NCBI GenBank assembly: GCA_965207785.1
Contig: CBDBNO010000012.1
Location: 187,808-251,807 of the forward strand
Length of the DNA: 64,000 bases
Source: Alphaproteobacteria bacterium
Lineage (GTDB): Bacteria > Pseudomonadota > Alphaproteobacteria > SP197
Direction: 5' to 3'
The notes beneath the pieces are model-generated. The model searched no databases. It worked only from the letters and a program-made list of their open reading frames with translations, and was not told the origin of the DNA. Every line of letters starts with the position of its first letter. The stretch's first letter is position 1. This document shows positions 5,069 to 14,633 of the stretch, piece after piece. Made by a program: the position numbers and the translations under genes.

Positions 5069-5551
5069 ATGCAGACCACGCGTTGGCAGAAAACCAGCCT
5101 CTCGATCGGCGACGTCGCCCGACGCACGGGACTCGCCACGTCGGCGCTCCGCTTCTACGAGGAAATGGCGCTGATCGAGTCGCTGCGCACGCCGGGCAAT
5201 CAGAGGCGCTATGCGCGTGACGTGATTCGACGGGTTTCGTTCATCCGTGCCGCGCAACGGGTGGGCCTGACACTCGAGGAGGTGCGCGCAATGCTCGACG
5301 ACCTGCCCGCGGGCCGGTCCCCGACCCGCCGGGACTGGCAGGAGCTTGCAAGACGCTGGAAACCATGGCTCGACGAACGGATCGCCGCCCTCGAACGCTT
5401 GCGGGACCAGCTTTCGTCATGCATCGGTTGCGGCTGCCTGTCGCTCGACAGCTGTGCTCTCTACAACCGCGGTGATGCCGCCGGCCGCCTGGGCCCCGGT
5501 CCGCGTTACCTTCTGGGCGATTCTCCTGAGGATCTCCAGACCCGGAATTGA
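5069..5551 (+). CDS. soxR: Redox-sensitive MerR-family transcriptional activator SoxR
   Basis: It has a MerR HTH (IGDVARRTGLATSALRFYEE) and the C-terminal [2Fe-2S] cysteine motif CIGCGCLSLDSCALYN. Confidence 0.9.
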   Translation: MQTTRWQKTSLSIGDVARRTGLATSALRFYEEMALIESLRTPGNQRRYARDVIRRVSFIRAAQRVGLTLEEVRAMLDDLPAGRSPTRRDWQELARRWKPWLDERIAALERLRDQLSSCIGCGCLSLDSCALYNRGDAAGRLGPGPRYLLGDSPEDLQTRN

Positions 5552-5618
5552 GCGAAAAGTGCATGGTGGAGCCCGCGCCCTCACGGACGACTGTCGCTCT
5601 CATCCTGGTGAGACCGGC

Positions 5619-6008
5619 TCAGGGGTCGGGCGGAAGGAACGAGCTTTCGTCGCGCAGCGAACAGCGGTTTCCGTCCGGGTCGACGAAGTCGCCGACGGTT
5701 CCCCAGGTCTCCCGTCTGACGACGACGCGCACGCCGCGCGCCTCCAAAAGACGGGCGGCAGCATCGACATCGGCAACGTTGAACCTCAGCTTGACCGGGC
5801 TTTGCTCGATGGATCGCCCGCCCGGCATCGCCGTTCCGCCGGTTTCGACCATCAGGTAACTCCCGCCCATGTCCAGGCAGGTCAGCGTGGAATGCTCGTC
5901 ATCGAGCGAGAACATCTCCGGCAGTCCCAGAATCCGGCGGTAGAAGTCGACACACTCTTCGTACTGCTCGGTGAACACGATGACGCCGCTTCGCTTCAGG
6001 TCCATCAT
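5619..6008 (-). CDS. VOC-family protein (glyoxalase / bleomycin-resistance-like), 129 aa
   Basis: The single-domain VOC pattern (...CVDFYRRILGLPE...LRFNVADVDAAARLLEARGVRVV...GDFVDPDGNR...) is present. It lies in the lower-GC islet. Confidence 0.7.
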   Translation of the reverse strand: MMDLKRSGVIVFTEQYEECVDFYRRILGLPEMFSLDDEHSTLTCLDMGGSYLMVETGGTAMPGGRSIEQSPVKLRFNVADVDAAARLLEARGVRVVVRRETWGTVGDFVDPDGNRCSLRDESSFLPPDP

Positions 6009-6234: not shown

Positions 6235-6636
6235 TCAAGATGGCCGATGGGATGCGGCGCGCCGGACGCGAAAGATCGAATGGGCAGTAGCGGTCCGTAG
6301 CGTGGATACACGTACCCGGCGATCTCGGTGGTGGAAAGTGAAGTCGTCGATGCATGCATGCGAAATGAATCCGCCGTCAATGTCCCCCGCCGTGCCGTCC
6401 CGCATCGCCTGGGACAGGAAACGGGCGATGCGCTGCGTAAGGCTTTGGTTGGTTCCGGTTCCCTCGCCGCCCAAAGGAAGTGTGCGGACAAGATTGTGAT
6501 TCGGATACTCCTCGGCAAAGCGTATGGCGATCTGATACGCAGACATGAACGGGCGGTCGAGAGGGTGATCGGCTTCGTACTCTGGACAGCTCGCCAGAAT
6601 CCGGCGCAGATGATCAATATTGAAGTCGCGTCTCAT
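6235..6636 (-). CDS. Hypothetical protein, about 105-133 aa, no recognisable family
   Basis: The ORF is MRRDFNIDHLRRILASCPEYEADHPLDRPFMSAYQIAIRFAEEYPNHNLVRTLPLGGEGTGTNQSLTQRIARFLSQAMRDGTAGDIDGGFISHACIDDFTFHH... The C-terminal roughly 30 codons are Arg-rich and may not be real. A competing frame (6090..6617) overlaps it. Confidence 0.4.
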   Translation of the reverse strand: MRRDFNIDHLRRILASCPEYEADHPLDRPFMSAYQIAIRFAEEYPNHNLVRTLPLGGEGTGTNQSLTQRIARFLSQAMRDGTAGDIDGGFISHACIDDFTFHHRDRRVRVSTLRTATAHSIFRVRRAASHRPS

Positions 6637-6698
6637 TGGGAGTCAGTCAAGGTTCCTGCGAGGGAGACGCAGTCTACCCGAACGTGTTCTTGAACCGA

Positions 6699-7451
6699 TC
6701 AACGAATAGCGTTCCGGCGACGAGAGCGCTTGCGGAATCTGCACTCCTCGCGGAGAAAGCACCTTCGGCAGTTCGGCTTCGTCTTCTTACAGGTGGACTT
6801 TCCCAAGCGAAAGAGCTGGGCGTCGAGCTTCCATGACCCCTGAGGCATCATCTCCCTTGCGATGTCGAGAGCGGCCTCTGCGGTGACCATGTTGCCGGTG
6901 AAGACGCGGCCCAACACTCTTCGCACATGGATGTCCGCCTTGAGTTCACCGACCCCTTCAATCTGCTTGGTGTCATAGAGTATCCCGGCGGTCATCCGGG
7001 AAATCTGCGGTCCTACCCCCATCCGTTCGAGTCGCTTCTGAGTCACGCACGAGGATTGGTTCGTCCAGATGTTGCGAGCATCACCGCCATATCGCTCTAC
7101 GATTTCCCTGCCGATTCTCTGGACGCGGGCATGTGCAGCAGGGAACCGGTGGAGGTTGTGGCGACGACGTACCGTCAGGGTGTTCCACCTGCGAATTCCA
7201 ACGATCTCATCCCACAGATCACGCGGATCACCAAGATCGTCCTCGGCAAAACGACGGGCATTTTCCCAAACCAGGCCGACCCTCATCTGATAGTCGAGGA
7301 TGCACCCGAGCAAGAACTTGTTGGCTGACCGCTTGTCCGCCCGGCGGCCATTCAGACGGGAGAGGAAACCTGTGTGCATGGGGGGCTGCCTGCGACGCTC
7401 TTTGCGAATCAGCTTGCGAACGCGCTTGCACTTGGGGCTGCTTGGTTTCAT
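6699..7451 (-). CDS. Endonuclease III-like HhH-GPD DNA glycosylase with a [4Fe-4S] cluster loop and a Lys/Arg-rich N-terminal tail
   Basis: The Fe-S cluster loop CKKTKPNCRRCFLREEC has C-x6-C-x2-C-x5-C spacing. The HhH region reads GVGPQISRMTAGIL, and the catalytic Asp is kept in ADIHVRRV. The N-terminal tail is MKPSSPKCKRVRKLIRKERRRQ. The start has a GAAGGAAG ribosome-binding site. Confidence 0.75.
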   Translation of the reverse strand: MKPSSPKCKRVRKLIRKERRRQPPMHTGFLSRLNGRRADKRSANKFLLGCILDYQMRVGLVWENARRFAEDDLGDPRDLWDEIVGIRRWNTLTVRRRHNLHRFPAAHARVQRIGREIVERYGGDARNIWTNQSSCVTQKRLERMGVGPQISRMTAGILYDTKQIEGVGELKADIHVRRVLGRVFTGNMVTAEAALDIAREMMPQGSWKLDAQLFRLGKSTCKKTKPNCRRCFLREECRFRKRSRRRNAIR

Positions 7452-7599
7452 GGTCACTTCCTTCAGTGTGGGCTGCGTGGCACTGCGACCCAAGATGCTG
7501 AGATCCTGGATGACTCACTGTGTAGAAATCTGGATATGGTAGGACGGGGGCGTTCGGGCATGCCAATTCGTCTGGGGGCTGGACGAGGCGTCCCTTCGC

Positions 7600-8058
7600 T
7601 CAGCGTCGCTGATATTCTCTGATCTTGCGGAAGGCCCCGGTCGTGGGGACACGATAGGCGAACCAGTCTGTCCTCATGACTTCGCGTTGTTCATCCCTGT
7701 AAGACTTGCCGTCCCTAACCAGGACGTGGTCGCCTGGGGCTCTTGTCTCCTGCCTGATCACAATGCTGTTCAGCGTCGGAAGACCGTTCACCCGGCAATA
7801 TTCTCCGACGATCCCCAACGGAATCCCCAAGGTGACTCCCGCCTTGGGATCCATTCCCATTCTTTTCGCGAGCTCACCGTAGGTGATGAGCACGTCTTTC
7901 CGTCGGCGAGGTGGCCGGGGTTCGTCTCGCCATTTCCATTCCTTCATGACGTGGGCCGTGAGGATCATCCAGACGCGTTGTGCCTGCACGTGCCGCCGGT
8001 CGCCGATACCAAACTCCTTAGCTTCAGGAACGGTGATGTCTCTCATTGTTTGAGCCAT
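7600..8058 (-). CDS. MGMT/Ogt-fold (alkyltransferase-like) winged-helix protein lacking the PCHR active-site motif, 152 aa
   Basis: ITYGELAKRMGMDPKAGVTLGIPLGIVGEYCRVNGLPTLNSIVIRQETRAPGDHVLVRDG aligns to the MGMT C-terminal domain (VSYGQLA...GAARAVGAA..NPISIVVPCHRV..G..GY). PCHRV is replaced by IRQET. The ribosome-binding site is GGAGAAAG. Confidence 0.55.
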   Translation of the reverse strand: MAQTMRDITVPEAKEFGIGDRRHVQAQRVWMILTAHVMKEWKWRDEPRPPRRRKDVLITYGELAKRMGMDPKAGVTLGIPLGIVGEYCRVNGLPTLNSIVIRQETRAPGDHVLVRDGKSYRDEQREVMRTDWFAYRVPTTGAFRKIREYQRR

Positions 8059-8345
8059 TTTGCTTTCTCCGTGCAATATTGCACATCTTGCGCTACATTG
8101 CACGAAGAATCAACCCATTGGCGTGATCGTCCGATATTCGTCTACCCGGTGGGAGAGACCGCAATACATGGCAGCCGGGTTGGCGGCGATCGGAGCCAGA
8201 CTCTTGATAGCCAAATAGGGCTGCCCTGCAGTCGATGACTATCATCCGGTTCGTGATGTGTTGGGTTCTGTCCGAAGGCCCGGAACAAGGCCAATGGAAC
8301 GGCGGTGCGGCGTGTTGCCGACGACACATCCGGGCCCTGGCCTGA

Positions 8346-11300
8346 TCAACCGGCGCTGCTGACGCGTTGTGGCCGGCGCACGTCTTGAGACGCGGCGCTG
8401 CGGAATGCGACAAGAGCCTCGACCTCGGCGGCGCGGGCCCTGGCGATGGCTTTGGCCTTGACATGACCAAAGCCGCGAATCTGCGAAGGGACGTTGGCAA
8501 GGTCCACGGCGGCGGCATGGTTCGCGGGGGTCAGTGCGACAACAACCTCGTTCATGCGATCGAAGTAGTCGGAAATCAGCCGGCGTTCCTCGCGCCGTTC
8601 GCGCTGCCAGCCAAAGGGATCGAGAACGCTGCCACGCAGCCGCCGCATGGCCGCAAGGCAGCGAAACACCACGAGGATCCAGCCACCGAACGTCCGTTTC
8701 ACCCGGTGGCCGGTCACCGGGTCGCGATGCGAGATCAACGGCGGCGCCAGGTGGAGCTGCAACCTCGGTTTGCCCTCGAAGGTTTCCTGCAGTCTCTTCG
8801 CGAATGTGCCGTCGACATAGAGCCGCGCCACTTCGTACTCGTCCTTGTAGGACATCAGCCTGAAGGCCTGGCGGGCGACGGCATCGGCAAGCTCGTCCCT
8901 GCCCGGCGTCAGCCTGCGTTCGGCATCCGAGACGCGATGGACAAGATCCAGGTACCGCTCGGCCCACGAACGGTCCTGCCAGGACGCGAGGAAGGCGGCG
9001 TAGCGTTCCACGAGCGCCTCACCGGTGTCCTGGTCTTCCTCCGCCGACGCCAGATTGCGGACCGCCGCCATGTCATGGGCCGCATGCCGTCCCAGGAGCA
9101 CGGCCTGCCTGTTGGTCTCGACGGCGACGCCGTTGAGTTCGATGGCCCTGTCGATGGCGTGACCCGGGAGCGGCAGAAGGCCCCTTTGCAGGGCATAGCC
9201 GAGCATGAAGAGATTGGCAGCAATGCCGTCGCCGAGCAGACTTCTGGCGAGGCGTGTGGCATCGACGACGTGCATCGCCGCGCTGCCGACCGCGTCCTCG
9301 AGGGCTTTCTCAAGGGCCTCAAGCGGATACTCGAGATCGGGGTCGAGGGCAAAGGCGCCCGTCATCGTCATCTCGGTGTTGACGACGGCCGTGGTCGTGC
9401 CGGGCGCCAGTTTGCGGAGCGTGTCCGGCGCCGCCGCTGTGACCATGTCGCAGGCCAGCAGCAGGCGGGCCCCGCCGTCGGTGATGCGCGGCGCGTGAAG
9501 CTCGCCGGGAGACCTGGCGATTCGGATGTGACTGACCACAGCACCGCCTTTCTGGGCCATGCCGATCATGTCGAGAACCGTGACACCGTTGCCTGCGACA
9601 TGTGCCGCCATGCCGAGAAGCGCGCCGACCGTGACCACTCCGGTGCCGCCAATGCCCGCGACCACGATGTCCCACGGCCTGTCGAGAGGCGCCATGGCCG
9701 GTTGCGGCAGGTGTCCCGACGCCAGGGAATGGAGCGCATCCTTGTTGCTGCGGCGCGGCCGGACACCGGTGACGGTCACAAGAGCCGGACAGAATCCCTT
9801 GATGCAGGACATGTCCATGTTGCACGACGACTGATCGATTTGCCGCTTGCGGCCGGACGGAGTCGCCACCGGAACGATCGCCACGCAGTTCGACTTGAGG
9901 CCGCAGTCGCCGCACCCTTCGCACACCTCCTCGTTGATGATGACACGCTCCAGAGGAATCGGCAGGGTGCCGCGCTTGCGACGCCGGCGCTTCTCGGCAG
10001 CACAAGTCTGGTCGTAGATGAGAACCGTAAGGCCGGGAACCTTCGCCAGGGCACGCTGGACCAGCTCCAGGTCGTCGCGATGATGCACCGTGCAGCCCTG
10101 TGGCCAGCGCGTCTTCGCCGGGTACTTCGCCGGATCGTCGGTGACGACACGGATCTCCCGTGCCCCCTCCGCCGCCACCTGGCGGGCGATGCGGGGCGGA
10201 CTGACATCAATGTCGGCGCTCTGCCCGCCGGTCATCGCAACGGCATCGTTGCACAGGATCTTGTAGGTCATGTTGACGTTTGCCGCCGCGGCCGCGCGGA
10301 TCGCCAGCAGGCCCGAGTGGCTGTAGGTGCCGTCGCCCAGATTGACGAAGACATGGTCCGTGGCAACGAACGGAGCCTGTCCGATCCACGAGGCGCCTTC
10401 CGCGCCCATGTGCGTGAAGGTTGCGGTGTTCCTCCCCATGCCGAGCGCCAGGTAGTGGCAGCCGATGCCGGCCAGGGCCCGGCTTTCCGGGGGCACCCTG
10501 GTCGACGTGTTGTGCGGGCAGCCGGCGCAGAAATAGGGCGTGCGCTCGAGAGGTGGCGGCTCACCGGCAGGGACTGGCTGATGGCGGGCACGGAACCCTT
10601 CGGTGAAGGTCGTGGAACCGGTGAGCGCGTCGAGACGGGGCGCGATGATGCGGGCGATTGCTGACGGATCCAGCTCGCCATCCGACGCCACGAGAGGTGC
10701 TCCCGCAGGGTCATGCTTGCCGCTCACGCGTGGCCGGTGCGTCGCCGGCAGATGATAGAGAGCCTCCTTGATCTGGGTTTCCATGAGAGCGCGCTTTTCC
10801 TCGATGACGAGGATGTCCTCGAGACCCGTGGCGAACTCTTCGAGACCTTCCGTCTCCAGGGGCCACGTCATGCCCACCTTGTAGAGACGCAGGCCGACAG
10901 CCCCCATGGCGGCATCGTCCAGTCCGAGATCATCCAGCGCCTGGGCCAGATCAAGCCAGGACTTCCCGGCCGCCACGATGCCAAGGCGCGCCTGGTGGCT
11001 GCCTCCGACGATTCGGTCGAGACGGTTCGCCCGGGCAAAGGCCCTGGCGGCGCCGAGCTTGTGGTTCTGCAGGCGCTCTTCCTGGCGCATCGGCTCATCG
11101 GGCCAGCGGATGTTGAGTCCGCCGGCCGCCGGGTCGGCAGAGGGAGGTACGGCAACCGGCCGATCCGGCACGAGTTCGATCGACGAGGATGCATCGAGGT
11201 TGTCGGCCGTCGTCTTGAAGCCGATCCAGCATCCCGAATGGCGGGACATTTCCATGCCGATGATTCCGAAGTCGAGAATCTCCGCCACGCCGGCCGGGTT

Positions 11301-11813
11301 GAGAACCGGAATGCCGGCGGCCACGAAGGCCTGCTCGCTCTGGTGCGGCAGTGTCGAGGACCGGCAGCCGTGATCGTCGCCGGCGATCAGCAGTACTCCG
11401 CCATGCCTCGCCGATCCGGCCAGATTGCCGTGTCTGAAGGCATCGCCGGAACGGTCGACTCCCGGTCCCTTGCCGTACCAGTAGGCGAACACCCCGTCGT
11501 GACGGGCGTCATCGAACAACTGGGCCTGCTGGCTGCCCCAGATGGCCGTCGCCGCGAGATCCTCGTTGATGCCCGGCTGGAAACGGATGCGGTGTTCTTT
11601 CAGGTGTTCCGCGGCGCGCCAGAGCTGCTGGTCATAGCCGCCGAGGGGGGAGCCGCGGTATCCGGAAATGAACCCGGCGGTGTCGAGCCCCGCCCTGGCG
11701 TCGCGCCGGCGCTGCTCCATGGGCAGGCGGACCAGCGCCTGGATGCCCGTCAGGTAGACACGCCCTTCTTCAAGGACGTACTTGTCATCGAGGCTGACCT
11801 CGCCTTGCGGCAT
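8346..11813 (-). CDS. Indolepyruvate ferredoxin oxidoreductase family protein (fused alpha/beta, about 1155 aa)
   Basis: It has the TPP-binding and 2x[4Fe-4S] motifs (CEGCGDCGLKSNC...CIKGFCP) and the N-terminal LDDKYVLEEGRVYLTGIQALVRLP typical of the IOR family. Confidence 0.85.
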   Translation of the reverse strand: MPQGEVSLDDKYVLEEGRVYLTGIQALVRLPMEQRRRDARAGLDTAGFISGYRGSPLGGYDQQLWRAAEHLKEHRIRFQPGINEDLAATAIWGSQQAQLFDDARHDGVFAYWYGKGPGVDRSGDAFRHGNLAGSARHGGVLLIAGDDHGCRSSTLPHQSEQAFVAAGIPVLNPAGVAEILDFGIIGMEMSRHSGCWIGFKTTADNLDASSSIELVPDRPVAVPPSADPAAGGLNIRWPDEPMRQEERLQNHKLGAARAFARANRLDRIVGGSHQARLGIVAAGKSWLDLAQALDDLGLDDAAMGAVGLRLYKVGMTWPLETEGLEEFATGLEDILVIEEKRALMETQIKEALYHLPATHRPRVSGKHDPAGAPLVASDGELDPSAIARIIAPRLDALTGSTTFTEGFRARHQPVPAGEPPPLERTPYFCAGCPHNTSTRVPPESRALAGIGCHYLALGMGRNTATFTHMGAEGASWIGQAPFVATDHVFVNLGDGTYSHSGLLAIRAAAAANVNMTYKILCNDAVAMTGGQSADIDVSPPRIARQVAAEGAREIRVVTDDPAKYPAKTRWPQGCTVHHRDDLELVQRALAKVPGLTVLIYDQTCAAEKRRRRKRGTLPIPLERVIINEEVCEGCGDCGLKSNCVAIVPVATPSGRKRQIDQSSCNMDMSCIKGFCPALVTVTGVRPRRSNKDALHSLASGHLPQPAMAPLDRPWDIVVAGIGGTGVVTVGALLGMAAHVAGNGVTVLDMIGMAQKGGAVVSHIRIARSPGELHAPRITDGGARLLLACDMVTAAAPDTLRKLAPGTTTAVVNTEMTMTGAFALDPDLEYPLEALEKALEDAVGSAAMHVVDATRLARSLLGDGIAANLFMLGYALQRGLLPLPGHAIDRAIELNGVAVETNRQAVLLGRHAAHDMAAVRNLASAEEDQDTGEALVERYAAFLASWQDRSWAERYLDLVHRVSDAERRLTPGRDELADAVARQAFRLMSYKDEYEVARLYVDGTFAKRLQETFEGKPRLQLHLAPPLISHRDPVTGHRVKRTFGGWILVVFRCLAAMRRLRGSVLDPFGWQRERREERRLISDYFDRMNEVVVALTPANHAAAVDLANVPSQIRGFGHVKAKAIARARAAEVEALVAFRSAASQDVRRPQRVSSAG

Positions 11814-11973
11814 GAGTGGAGGACCGCTTGCTTGGAGGGGTGAACGCCGTTCACCATAGCGGCCATGGACCATGCCGGCGAGTCACGATTGACCGTCCCG
11901 GGAGTGTAGCCTTCGGCGGGGAAGTGGACTAAAGAGGCGGGATCAGACCAGACCTGCCTGTGAGGAATCCGCC

Positions 11974-14557: not shown

Positions 14558-14633
14558 TGGTGCCGAAGGGGAGATTCGAACTCCCGACCTACTGATTACG
14601 AATCAGTTGCTCTGCCACTGAGCTACTTCGGCT
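14558..14633 (-). tRNA. tRNA-Thr (anticodon CGT)
   Basis: The reverse complement GCCGAAGTAGCTCAGTGGCAGAGCAACTGATTCGTAATCAGTAGGTCGGGAGTTCGAATCTCCCCTTCGGCACCA folds as a cloverleaf with a 7-bp acceptor stem, a T-loop TTCGAAT and an anticodon loop TTCGTAA. The CCA end is encoded. Confidence 0.9.

Follow-up and report, generated by a model that had tools for sequence, protein, structure and literature searches.

The window analyzed in this study, a stretch of 64,000 nucleotides from an alphaproteobacterial contig (CBDBNO010000012.1), contains at positions 7600-8058 a real gene whose product (hereafter the target) forms a new, unannotated protein family, and which is preceded by a perfect 14-bp palindrome. 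The pattern of this palindrome, GTGCA-N4-TGCAC, recurs without any mismatch upstream of the family gene in 29 of 77 non-redundant loci, and not once in the 525,688 nt of flanking DNA of the same loci that served as background. An earlier note, made by inspection of the sequence, had read the target as a non-catalytic relative of the DNA repair protein MGMT that senses lesions for an adjacent glycosylase. We favor, with moderate confidence, another explanation: the target is a self-regulating, sequence-specific, dimeric winged-helix DNA-binding protein, built on an MGMT-like scaffold, non-catalytic, and carried in mobile or accessory DNA.

According to this explanation, the core of the protein would be the C-terminal winged helix-turn-helix (HTH) of MGMT (PF01035-like), extended by about two turns in the recognition helix and by additional helices at the C-terminus, the alkyl-acceptor pocket having been lost or never been present. 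A dimer would occupy GTGCA-N4-TGCAC, where the half-site centers lie 9 bp apart, i.e., about one helical turn, on one face of the helix. Binding there, over the promoter and 5' leader of its own gene, would make the protein a repressor of that gene and, in this lineage, probably also of a co-oriented glycosylase-like gene and a 133-aa open reading frame (ORF). The gene would constitute a self-contained promoter-operator-regulator cassette that travels with mobile or accessory DNA in Proteobacteria.

The Palindrome in the Window and across the Family

The palindrome of the window, O1 (GTGCAATATTGCAC; coordinates of all features are given in Table 1), was found as palindrome I19 and is located between the promoter region and the ribosome-binding site; the order upstream of the gene on the coding strand is TTGATTCTTCGTGCAATGTAGCGCAAGAT-GTGCAATATTGCAC-GGAGAAAGCAAA-ATG. 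It is the sole match to GTGCA-N4-TGCAC with at most one mismatch in the 64 kb, where 2.5 are expected, such that the single match alone is not significant. An imperfect second copy, O2 (GTGCAATGTAGCGC on the minus strand, with 2 mismatches), overlaps a -10-like TAGCGC. Together, O1 and O2 form a larger dyad at 8065-8109 (inverted repeat I3, arms 8065-8085 and 8089-8109, 81% complementary), and a half-site equivalent to O2 is retained in three further loci (L002, L003, and L035).

Across the family, the motif was counted in the region from -120 to +10 of the start in the 77 loci. In addition to the exact matches reported above, 45 loci carry it with at most one mismatch (0.0015 expected per 130 nt) and 55 with at most two (0.042 expected per 130 nt). 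The site lies mostly 18-49 nt 5' of the start codon, is often extended (26-28 bp in L076 and L027) or joined by a second imperfect copy, and is kept down to about 40% protein identity, including members from Sphingomonas, Photorhabdus, Erwinia, and soil and marine metagenomes. The few near-matches in the background have G/C-rich centers, and their positions are scattered relative to the gene.

In 49 distinct instances the two arms show the counts G46 T43 G46 C49 A48 and T48 G49 C45 A45 C49, around an A/T-rich, variable center. The arms are conserved as sequence and their rare changes leave the dyad imperfect and uncompensated; the pattern therefore fits a protein-binding site and not the stem of an RNA. 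As expected for an autoregulated regulator, the conserved dyad lies over the gene's own promoter or leader, a location that speaks for the recognition of a specific sequence in undamaged duplex DNA. Since the palindrome-bearing loci share no gene except the family gene, we infer that the family protein itself binds the site.

In sphingomonad loci, the site lies within the spacer of a TTGACA-N17 promoter. In L027 (approximately 5170-5230) and at the equivalent places in L074, L008, and L011, the ATG follows the -10 region by about 10 nt or less. The operator within the TTGACA spacer and the ATG close behind the -10 region suggest that the sphingomonad transcripts are leaderless or have a very short leader. 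In some other lineages, the place of the site is taken by a different palindrome, e.g., CTGGCAGAGTCTGCCAG in L020 (at about -40) and TGGTCCATATGGACCA in L063; altogether, GTGCA-N4-TGCAC is lacking and another palindrome present (CTGGCAGAGTCTGCCAG, TGGTCCATATGGACCA, AGAACGATATGTTCT) in L020, L013, L063, and L023. These replacements hint at diverged operator specificities.

Several observations weigh against a self-regulating, sequence-specific binder. The motif is missing in 22 of the 77 loci even when two mismatches are allowed, and co-variation of recognition-helix residues with operator variants revealed no simple pattern. A strict sigma-70 scan detected no promoter for the window copy of the gene, and the detected regulon consists of the gene itself only. 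Finally, the minor-groove binding of MGMT and the alkyltransferase-like (ATL) proteins is not sequence-specific, and a sequence-specific binder on this scaffold requires a changed binding mode.

Family Extent and Relationship to MGMT

That the target belongs to a family without an existing model, as the earlier note had presumed, held true: its protein has zero matches in Pfam, NCBIfam, PADLOC, and PHROGs. Against the sequences of the PDB (phmmer and profile search), the best match was 1mgt on the segment ITYGELA, at a non-significant E of 0.54. A word-indexed search yielded 76 homologue clusters, all named 'hypothetical' and none with a Pfam domain. The family profile, built from 52 of these, retrieved 1,103 clusters at E <= 1e-3 in a representative library at 50% identity. 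The same sequence without active-site Cys or Trp is retained throughout both sets. Genome matches come chiefly from Alphaproteobacteria (Defluviicoccus, Sphingomonadaceae, Rhizobium, Azospirillum), some from Gammaproteobacteria (Photorhabdus, Xenorhabdus, Erwinia, Scandinavium), and three family matches are on viral contigs of IMG/VR. Among 89 divergent members (alignment A3), residues A26, W30, L33, Y60, L81, C88, P94, L96, V100, V101, G109, W132, and P138 are near-invariant. A literature search, of incomplete coverage, for a stand-alone MGMT family lacking Cys and Trp or for a GTGCA-N4-TGCAC operator found no description. Foldseek neighbors of the model in BFVD are exclusively uncharacterized phage proteins, headed by S5VMJ6 of Pseudomonas phage PaBG (probability 1.0, TM 0.50/0.64) and a protein of Dickeya phage JA13; by their modeled structures, they may be distant family members in phages.

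The AlphaFold2 model computed with the family alignment (pLDDT 87.7, pTM 0.83) predicts helix H1 (residues 22-44), a variable loop of low confidence, a strand (58-59), H2 (60-66), and a recognition helix H3 of 20 residues (71-90). These are followed by an LPTLN turn, a short helical turn (96-99), a strand (100-101), and the wing, and by C-terminal helices at 120-129 and 140-151. The model hence shows the winged HTH of the MGMT C-terminal domain, with helix 1, Tyr strand, recognition helix, and wing, and MGMT/Ogt-type proteins are its best structural matches in the PDB.

For a comparison at the profile level, we used an alignment (A2) of Ogt, YbaZ, and the Ada C-terminal domain from the E. coli K-12 genome, six YbaZ-like proteins, and human MGMT and S. 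pombe Atl1, the latter two entered by hand. With 11 sequences A2 is shallow, and the search for YbaZ homologues yielded close relatives only. Aligned with this MGMT/ATL set by hhalign, the close family reached a probability of 89.6% and the 89 divergent members 92.5%. The target scored E = 0.12 against the MGMT/ATL hidden Markov model (HMM), and the member P0180 2.4e-6. In many members, the HMM is in register with the QxxVW of helix 1 (QQVWQIL versus QRVWQIL), with the Tyr strand (ITYGQLA versus TTYGDVA), and with the first part of the recognition helix (AARAVG in P0164). PF01035 is matched by 4 of the 89 divergent members (best E 1.6e-4, below threshold), and no other Pfam family by more than one of them; the target itself has no match to PF01035 at E <= 1, and hence none at the Pfam gathering score.

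The relationship to MGMT is probably real but distant, and carried by the N-terminal half of the domain. The earlier note's claim of an MGMT fold is borne out by the model and by both hhalign comparisons, though not by the target on its own, which lacks a Pfam or NCBIfam match and, in a Foldseek comparison (a check named in the earlier note), a significant structural hit in the PDB (E = 1.7). Its position-by-position alignment through the Asn hinge and the active-site strand did not hold, as sequence similarity is limited to helix 1, the Tyr strand, and the HTH.

The alternative at this point is a generic winged-helix transcription factor without specific MGMT ancestry, which would have the same autoregulatory function and resemble MGMT through the shared winged HTH and chance motifs such as ITYGELA. 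The weak scores of the target alone (Foldseek, MGMT/ATL HMM, PF01035) speak for it, but we consider it unlikely: two distinct family alignments each reach about 90-92% in hhalign, no Pfam family except PF01035 is matched by two or more members, and three consecutive elements are in register, in some members down to AARAVG in the HTH.

Mobile and Accessory DNA Neighborhoods

In 90 loci with a family member, the neighborhoods are variable and of the mobile or accessory type. They contain Xre-type HTH genes, resolvase and integrase fragments, HepT/MNT, IS240 and IS66 transposases, MPTase-PolyVal and SprT-like (ArdC-type) genes, HU, Mrr_cat, and an ORF that looks ParB-like on visual inspection of its sequence. 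The sole recurrent neighbor is a serine recombinase, found within 2 kb in 14 of the 90 loci, a loose association. Large serine recombinases (about 560 aa) lie downstream on the same strand in L007, L011, L055, L065, L067, and L073, mostly at 350-430 bp (53 bp in L055), and small ones (about 205 aa) lie divergently 233 bp upstream in L015, L016, and L091. In some elements, the family gene may head a recombinase operon.

These neighbors raise the question whether the palindrome serves something other than the family protein, i.e., a recombinase or res-like site, another regulator, or a hairpin of the leader RNA, the protein being, e.g., an anti-restriction or nucleoid-associated protein of conjugative elements. 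ParB-like, MPTase-PolyVal/ArdC-like, SprT-like, and HU neighbors are typical of conjugative-element regions, recombinases are among the neighbors, and the link between protein and site is an indirect one. However, the motif also occurs in loci that have neither a recombinase nor any other shared gene close by, the window included, and it keeps a fixed position with respect to the start codon. Moreover, the sequence of its arms is conserved with no compensatory changes, and an RNA stem of 5 bp would be weak. Another owner of the palindrome is distinctly unlikely on these grounds.

Residues at the Catalytic and Flipping Positions

The earlier note was right that both the PCHR cysteine motif of MGMT and the PWHRV motif of ATL proteins are missing. 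A scan of 7000-8600 in all six frames found none of the strings PCHR, PWHR, CHR, and WHR; a PCHR masked by a frameshift, a check which that note had named, is therefore excluded. The proposed replacement of PCHRV by IRQET (I101-T105) was supported by neither of two registers. By secondary structure, the counterpart of PCHR is P94-T95-L96-N97-S98, within a segment L93...V100 that comprises a conserved Pro, a one-turn helix, and a VV strand; hhalign pairs PCHRV with P108-G109-D110-H111-V112. The acceptor position bears no conserved Cys or Trp in either register: position 109 is a Gly, and position 95, a Thr in the target, is variable among the 89 divergent members (P24, A22, L10, H6, C5, R5, T3) between the nearly invariant P94 and L96. 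In structural terms, position 95 probably corresponds to the cysteine of PCHR. Five of the 89 members have a Cys there, directly behind the conserved Pro (LPCLN-like), perhaps a remnant of an ancestral active site.

For nucleotide flipping, human MGMT uses Tyr114 and the Arg finger, Arg128. The Tyr is present as Tyr60 in all 52 close family members and in 83 of the 89 divergent ones. The Arg-finger position, mapped via the AARAVG of P0164, is Val75 in the target and variable in the divergent set (R37, H11, G11, I9, L6, V5). The half of the domain that holds the active-site loop, with PWHRV and the lesion pocket of ATL proteins, is not alignable by sequence. As no Cys or Trp is conserved at the acceptor position and the Arg-finger position is variable, the features by which MGMT and ATL function is defined, those of nucleotide flipping and of the pocket, are, judged by sequence, not kept. 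An ability to flip and bind a modified base, which the earlier note had granted the protein, consequently finds no backing in the Arg finger or in the pocket half, for which no sequence counterpart is detectable.

A different Cys, Cys88, is near-invariant (52/52 close and 88/89 divergent members). It belongs to the i/i+4 stripe L77-L81-V84-C88 of the long helix, presumably the buried face of that helix. It is a long shot that the target is an MGMT-derived sequence-specific transcription factor in which Cys88 acts as an alkylation or redox switch, such that DNA damage or electrophile stress frees the operator and turns on mobile-element cargo, e.g., the adjacent glycosylase; if true, the damage-sensing logic of Ada and Cada2 would have been rebuilt without the PCHR site.

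The Glycosylase-Like Neighbor

Directly downstream of the target, on the same strand and separated by a spacer of 148 bp, lies the gene that the earlier note had taken for a glycosylase; the arrangement is as described there. Translation most likely starts at ATG 7451, which gives the 250 aa typical of its homologues. The product carries the elements of an HhH-GPD protein, namely a GVG hairpin, the catalytic-Asp motif KADIHVRRV about 20 residues further on, and an iron-sulfur loop C-X6-C-X2-C-X5-C (GVGPQISRMTAG...KADIHVRRV and CKKTKPNCRRCFLREEC, the latter corresponding to the [4Fe-4S] loop). In 43 homologues, the Asp is invariant and the cysteines are nearly so. There is no match in Pfam, and no curated Nth, MutY, or HhH-GPD cut-off is reached; below threshold, NCBIfam returned TIGR03252 at 7.7e-8 (32 bits versus a cut-off of 136.5), as well as MutY and Nth. 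The profile of the 43 homologues matches EndoIII/MutY structures in the PDB (best E 3.5e-5), KADIHVRRV aligning with vDtHvhRi and the cluster loops with each other. Since this match covers both the catalytic-Asp motif and the cluster loop, the label 'glycosylase-like' appears justified. The hairpin has a Gln instead of the Lys of EndoIII, which suggests a monofunctional glycosylase. The neighbor's own family consists of 201 unannotated clusters and includes archaeal, Nitrospirota, Clostridia, and Acidobacteriota members (P0340-P0459).

The spacer contains no recognizable promoter, operator, or minus-strand terminator, and co-transcription of the two genes in this lineage is possible. The glycosylase-like gene follows the family gene in 4 of the 66 loci that offer at least 900 bp of downstream DNA (L002, L003, L033, and L034), in all of which the target relative is at least 78% identical; in L001, with 82% identity, an AraC-type gene is located there and the glycosylase-like gene is absent. 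A conserved glycosylase partnership was thus rejected as a family trait, and the lesion-sensor and excision pair of the earlier note does not extend beyond close relatives. In two of the four loci the glycosylase-like gene is called in fragments (L033 5617-6312; L034 2462-3172; 79 aa plus others), across which tblastn aligns about 235 residues; in these metagenome contigs the fragmentation may reflect frameshifts or decay.

An ATL-like, non-catalytic sensor of lesions or modified bases, which would flip a damaged nucleotide into a pocket and hand the site to the adjacent glycosylase, would draw on the MGMT-like fold, on the conserved Tyr60, and on the close, co-oriented gene pair of these four loci and the window. 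We regard it as very unlikely, given the restriction of the pairing, the unconserved Arg-finger equivalent, the lack of PWHRV, PCHR, and any sequence counterpart of the active-site loop, the palindrome, which indicates recognition of a normal DNA sequence, and a glycosylase-like family that is widespread without the target as a partner.

Comparison with Known Systems

The target shares with MGMT/AGT, Ogt, and the Ada C-terminal domain (PF01035) the order of the core, i.e., helix 1 with QxxVW, a short strand ending in Tyr (ITY60G), and the HTH, and beyond it a Pro-containing turn, a VV strand, a wing, and a C-terminal helix. In contrast to MGMT, it has no N-terminal domain and no Cys acceptor in a PCHR motif, and a Val replaces the Arg finger. 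Its Asn91 stands 3 residues before the conserved Pro, compared with 7 in MGMT. The recognition helix, about 12 residues long in MGMT, has 20 in the target, to which approximately 30 extra C-terminal residues with the invariant Trp132 are added. Furthermore, it falls below any PF01035 score and is associated with a sequence-specific palindrome, whereas the MGMT C-terminal domain is a non-sequence-specific, minor-groove, nucleotide-flipping module.

The ATL proteins (S. pombe Atl1, E. coli YbaZ/eATL, T. thermophilus TTHA1564) are, like the target, small stand-alone DNA-binding proteins with a non-catalytic MGMT fold. They have retained PWHRV, the Arg finger, and a pocket that binds lesions, and the YbaZ relatives listed all carry PF01035, whereas the target family has neither PF01035 nor PWHRV nor the Arg finger. 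ATL proteins are not known to possess a cognate palindromic operator. The target fails the defining tests of MGMT (PCHR, PF01035 threshold, Arg finger) and that of ATL proteins (PWHRV), and for this reason it should be filed under neither.

Closer to the favored function are E. coli Ada and Caulobacter Cada2, where an MGMT-type domain is part of a transcription regulator. In Ada, sequence-specific promoter binding is the task of other, N-terminal domains, whereas the MGMT-like domain is the only DNA-binding module of the target, which moreover lacks PCHR. Ada and Cada2 keep the PCHR cysteine, whose methylation is the switch (PMC10957082). PF01035 domains are also fused to GmrSD Type IV restriction enzymes (PMC4619093); as in the target, an MGMT DNA-binding domain has there been recruited outside alkyl-transfer repair and in mobile or defense contexts, but these fused accessory domains still match PF01035, while the target stands alone and does not. 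In its favored role, the target would resemble an ordinary autoregulated repressor of the winged-HTH kind. It has no sequence or profile membership among the autoregulated dimeric repressors of the MarR, ArsR, or IscR type, and its nearest fold is MGMT, not MarR, ArsR, or Rrf2.

To our knowledge, the ATL lesion sensor is the only well-known non-catalytic offshoot of MGMT. If the favored explanation is true, a family of about 1,100 clusters shows that a repair fold has found a second use on mobile DNA, as an ordinary regulator with sequence specificity. The novelty lies in this reuse of the fold and in a very clean operator signal; the likely function is ordinary. The 152-aa protein and its 14-bp site would then be a ready protein/operator pair for studying a change of binding mode. 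For annotation, a family of 'hypothetical' proteins gains a name and a testable function, and an MGMT-like gene beside a glycosylase need not mean a repair pair.

The Gene and Its Surroundings in the Window

The ORF at 7600-8058 reported in the earlier note was confirmed, and the peptide strings cited there are present in the 152-aa product. The longest frame extends over 7600-8103 from a GTG; ATG 8058 was chosen as start codon, as all homologues begin at or near the equivalent position. The Shine-Dalgarno-like GGAG coincides in position with GGAG or GGAA in close homologues.

Table 1. Location of genes and sequence elements in the window.
Feature	Position	Strand	Remarks
133-aa ORF	6235..6636	minus	co-oriented third ORF; no family assignment
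Glycosylase-like coding sequence, 250 aa	6699..7451	minus	HhH-GPD-type, divergent; ATG 7451; ribosome-binding site GAAGGAA; downstream of target, co-oriented
Target coding sequence, 152 aa	7600..8058	minus	stop included; ATG at 8058
Shine-Dalgarno-like GGAG	8067..8070	minus	8 nt 5' of ATG 8058; read from sequence
O1, perfect 14-bp palindrome	8071..8084		operator-like; directly 5' of ribosome-binding site; -26..-13 of gene
O2, imperfect second copy	8090..8103		2 mismatches to GTGCA-N4-TGCAC; overlaps -10-like hexamer
-35-like hexamer TTGATT	8108..8113	minus	TTGAC(A/G) in homologues; upstream alignment by eye; putative promoter
tRNA-Thr (CGT)	14558-14632	minus	only tRNA in window

The three co-oriented genes of 152, 250, and 133 aa lie within a dip in GC content at about 6500-8500 (0.58-0.59, compared with 0.65-0.69 in the flanks). 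This islet is bounded by a MerR and glyoxalase pair (5069-6008) and by an ORF of 1175 aa (8346-11873). Neither flanking direct repeats that would mark an insertion nor a recombinase were found in the window; the tRNA-Thr gene is 6.5 kb away from the islet, with no evident link. The 133-aa ORF has no match in Pfam, NCBIfam, PADLOC, or PHROGs. In L033 and L034, it is 86-89% identical and again lies beside the target and glycosylase-like genes, and because of this conservation it is the third member of a lineage-specific module. In L034, an insertion of approximately 1.5 kb separates it from the glycosylase-like gene.

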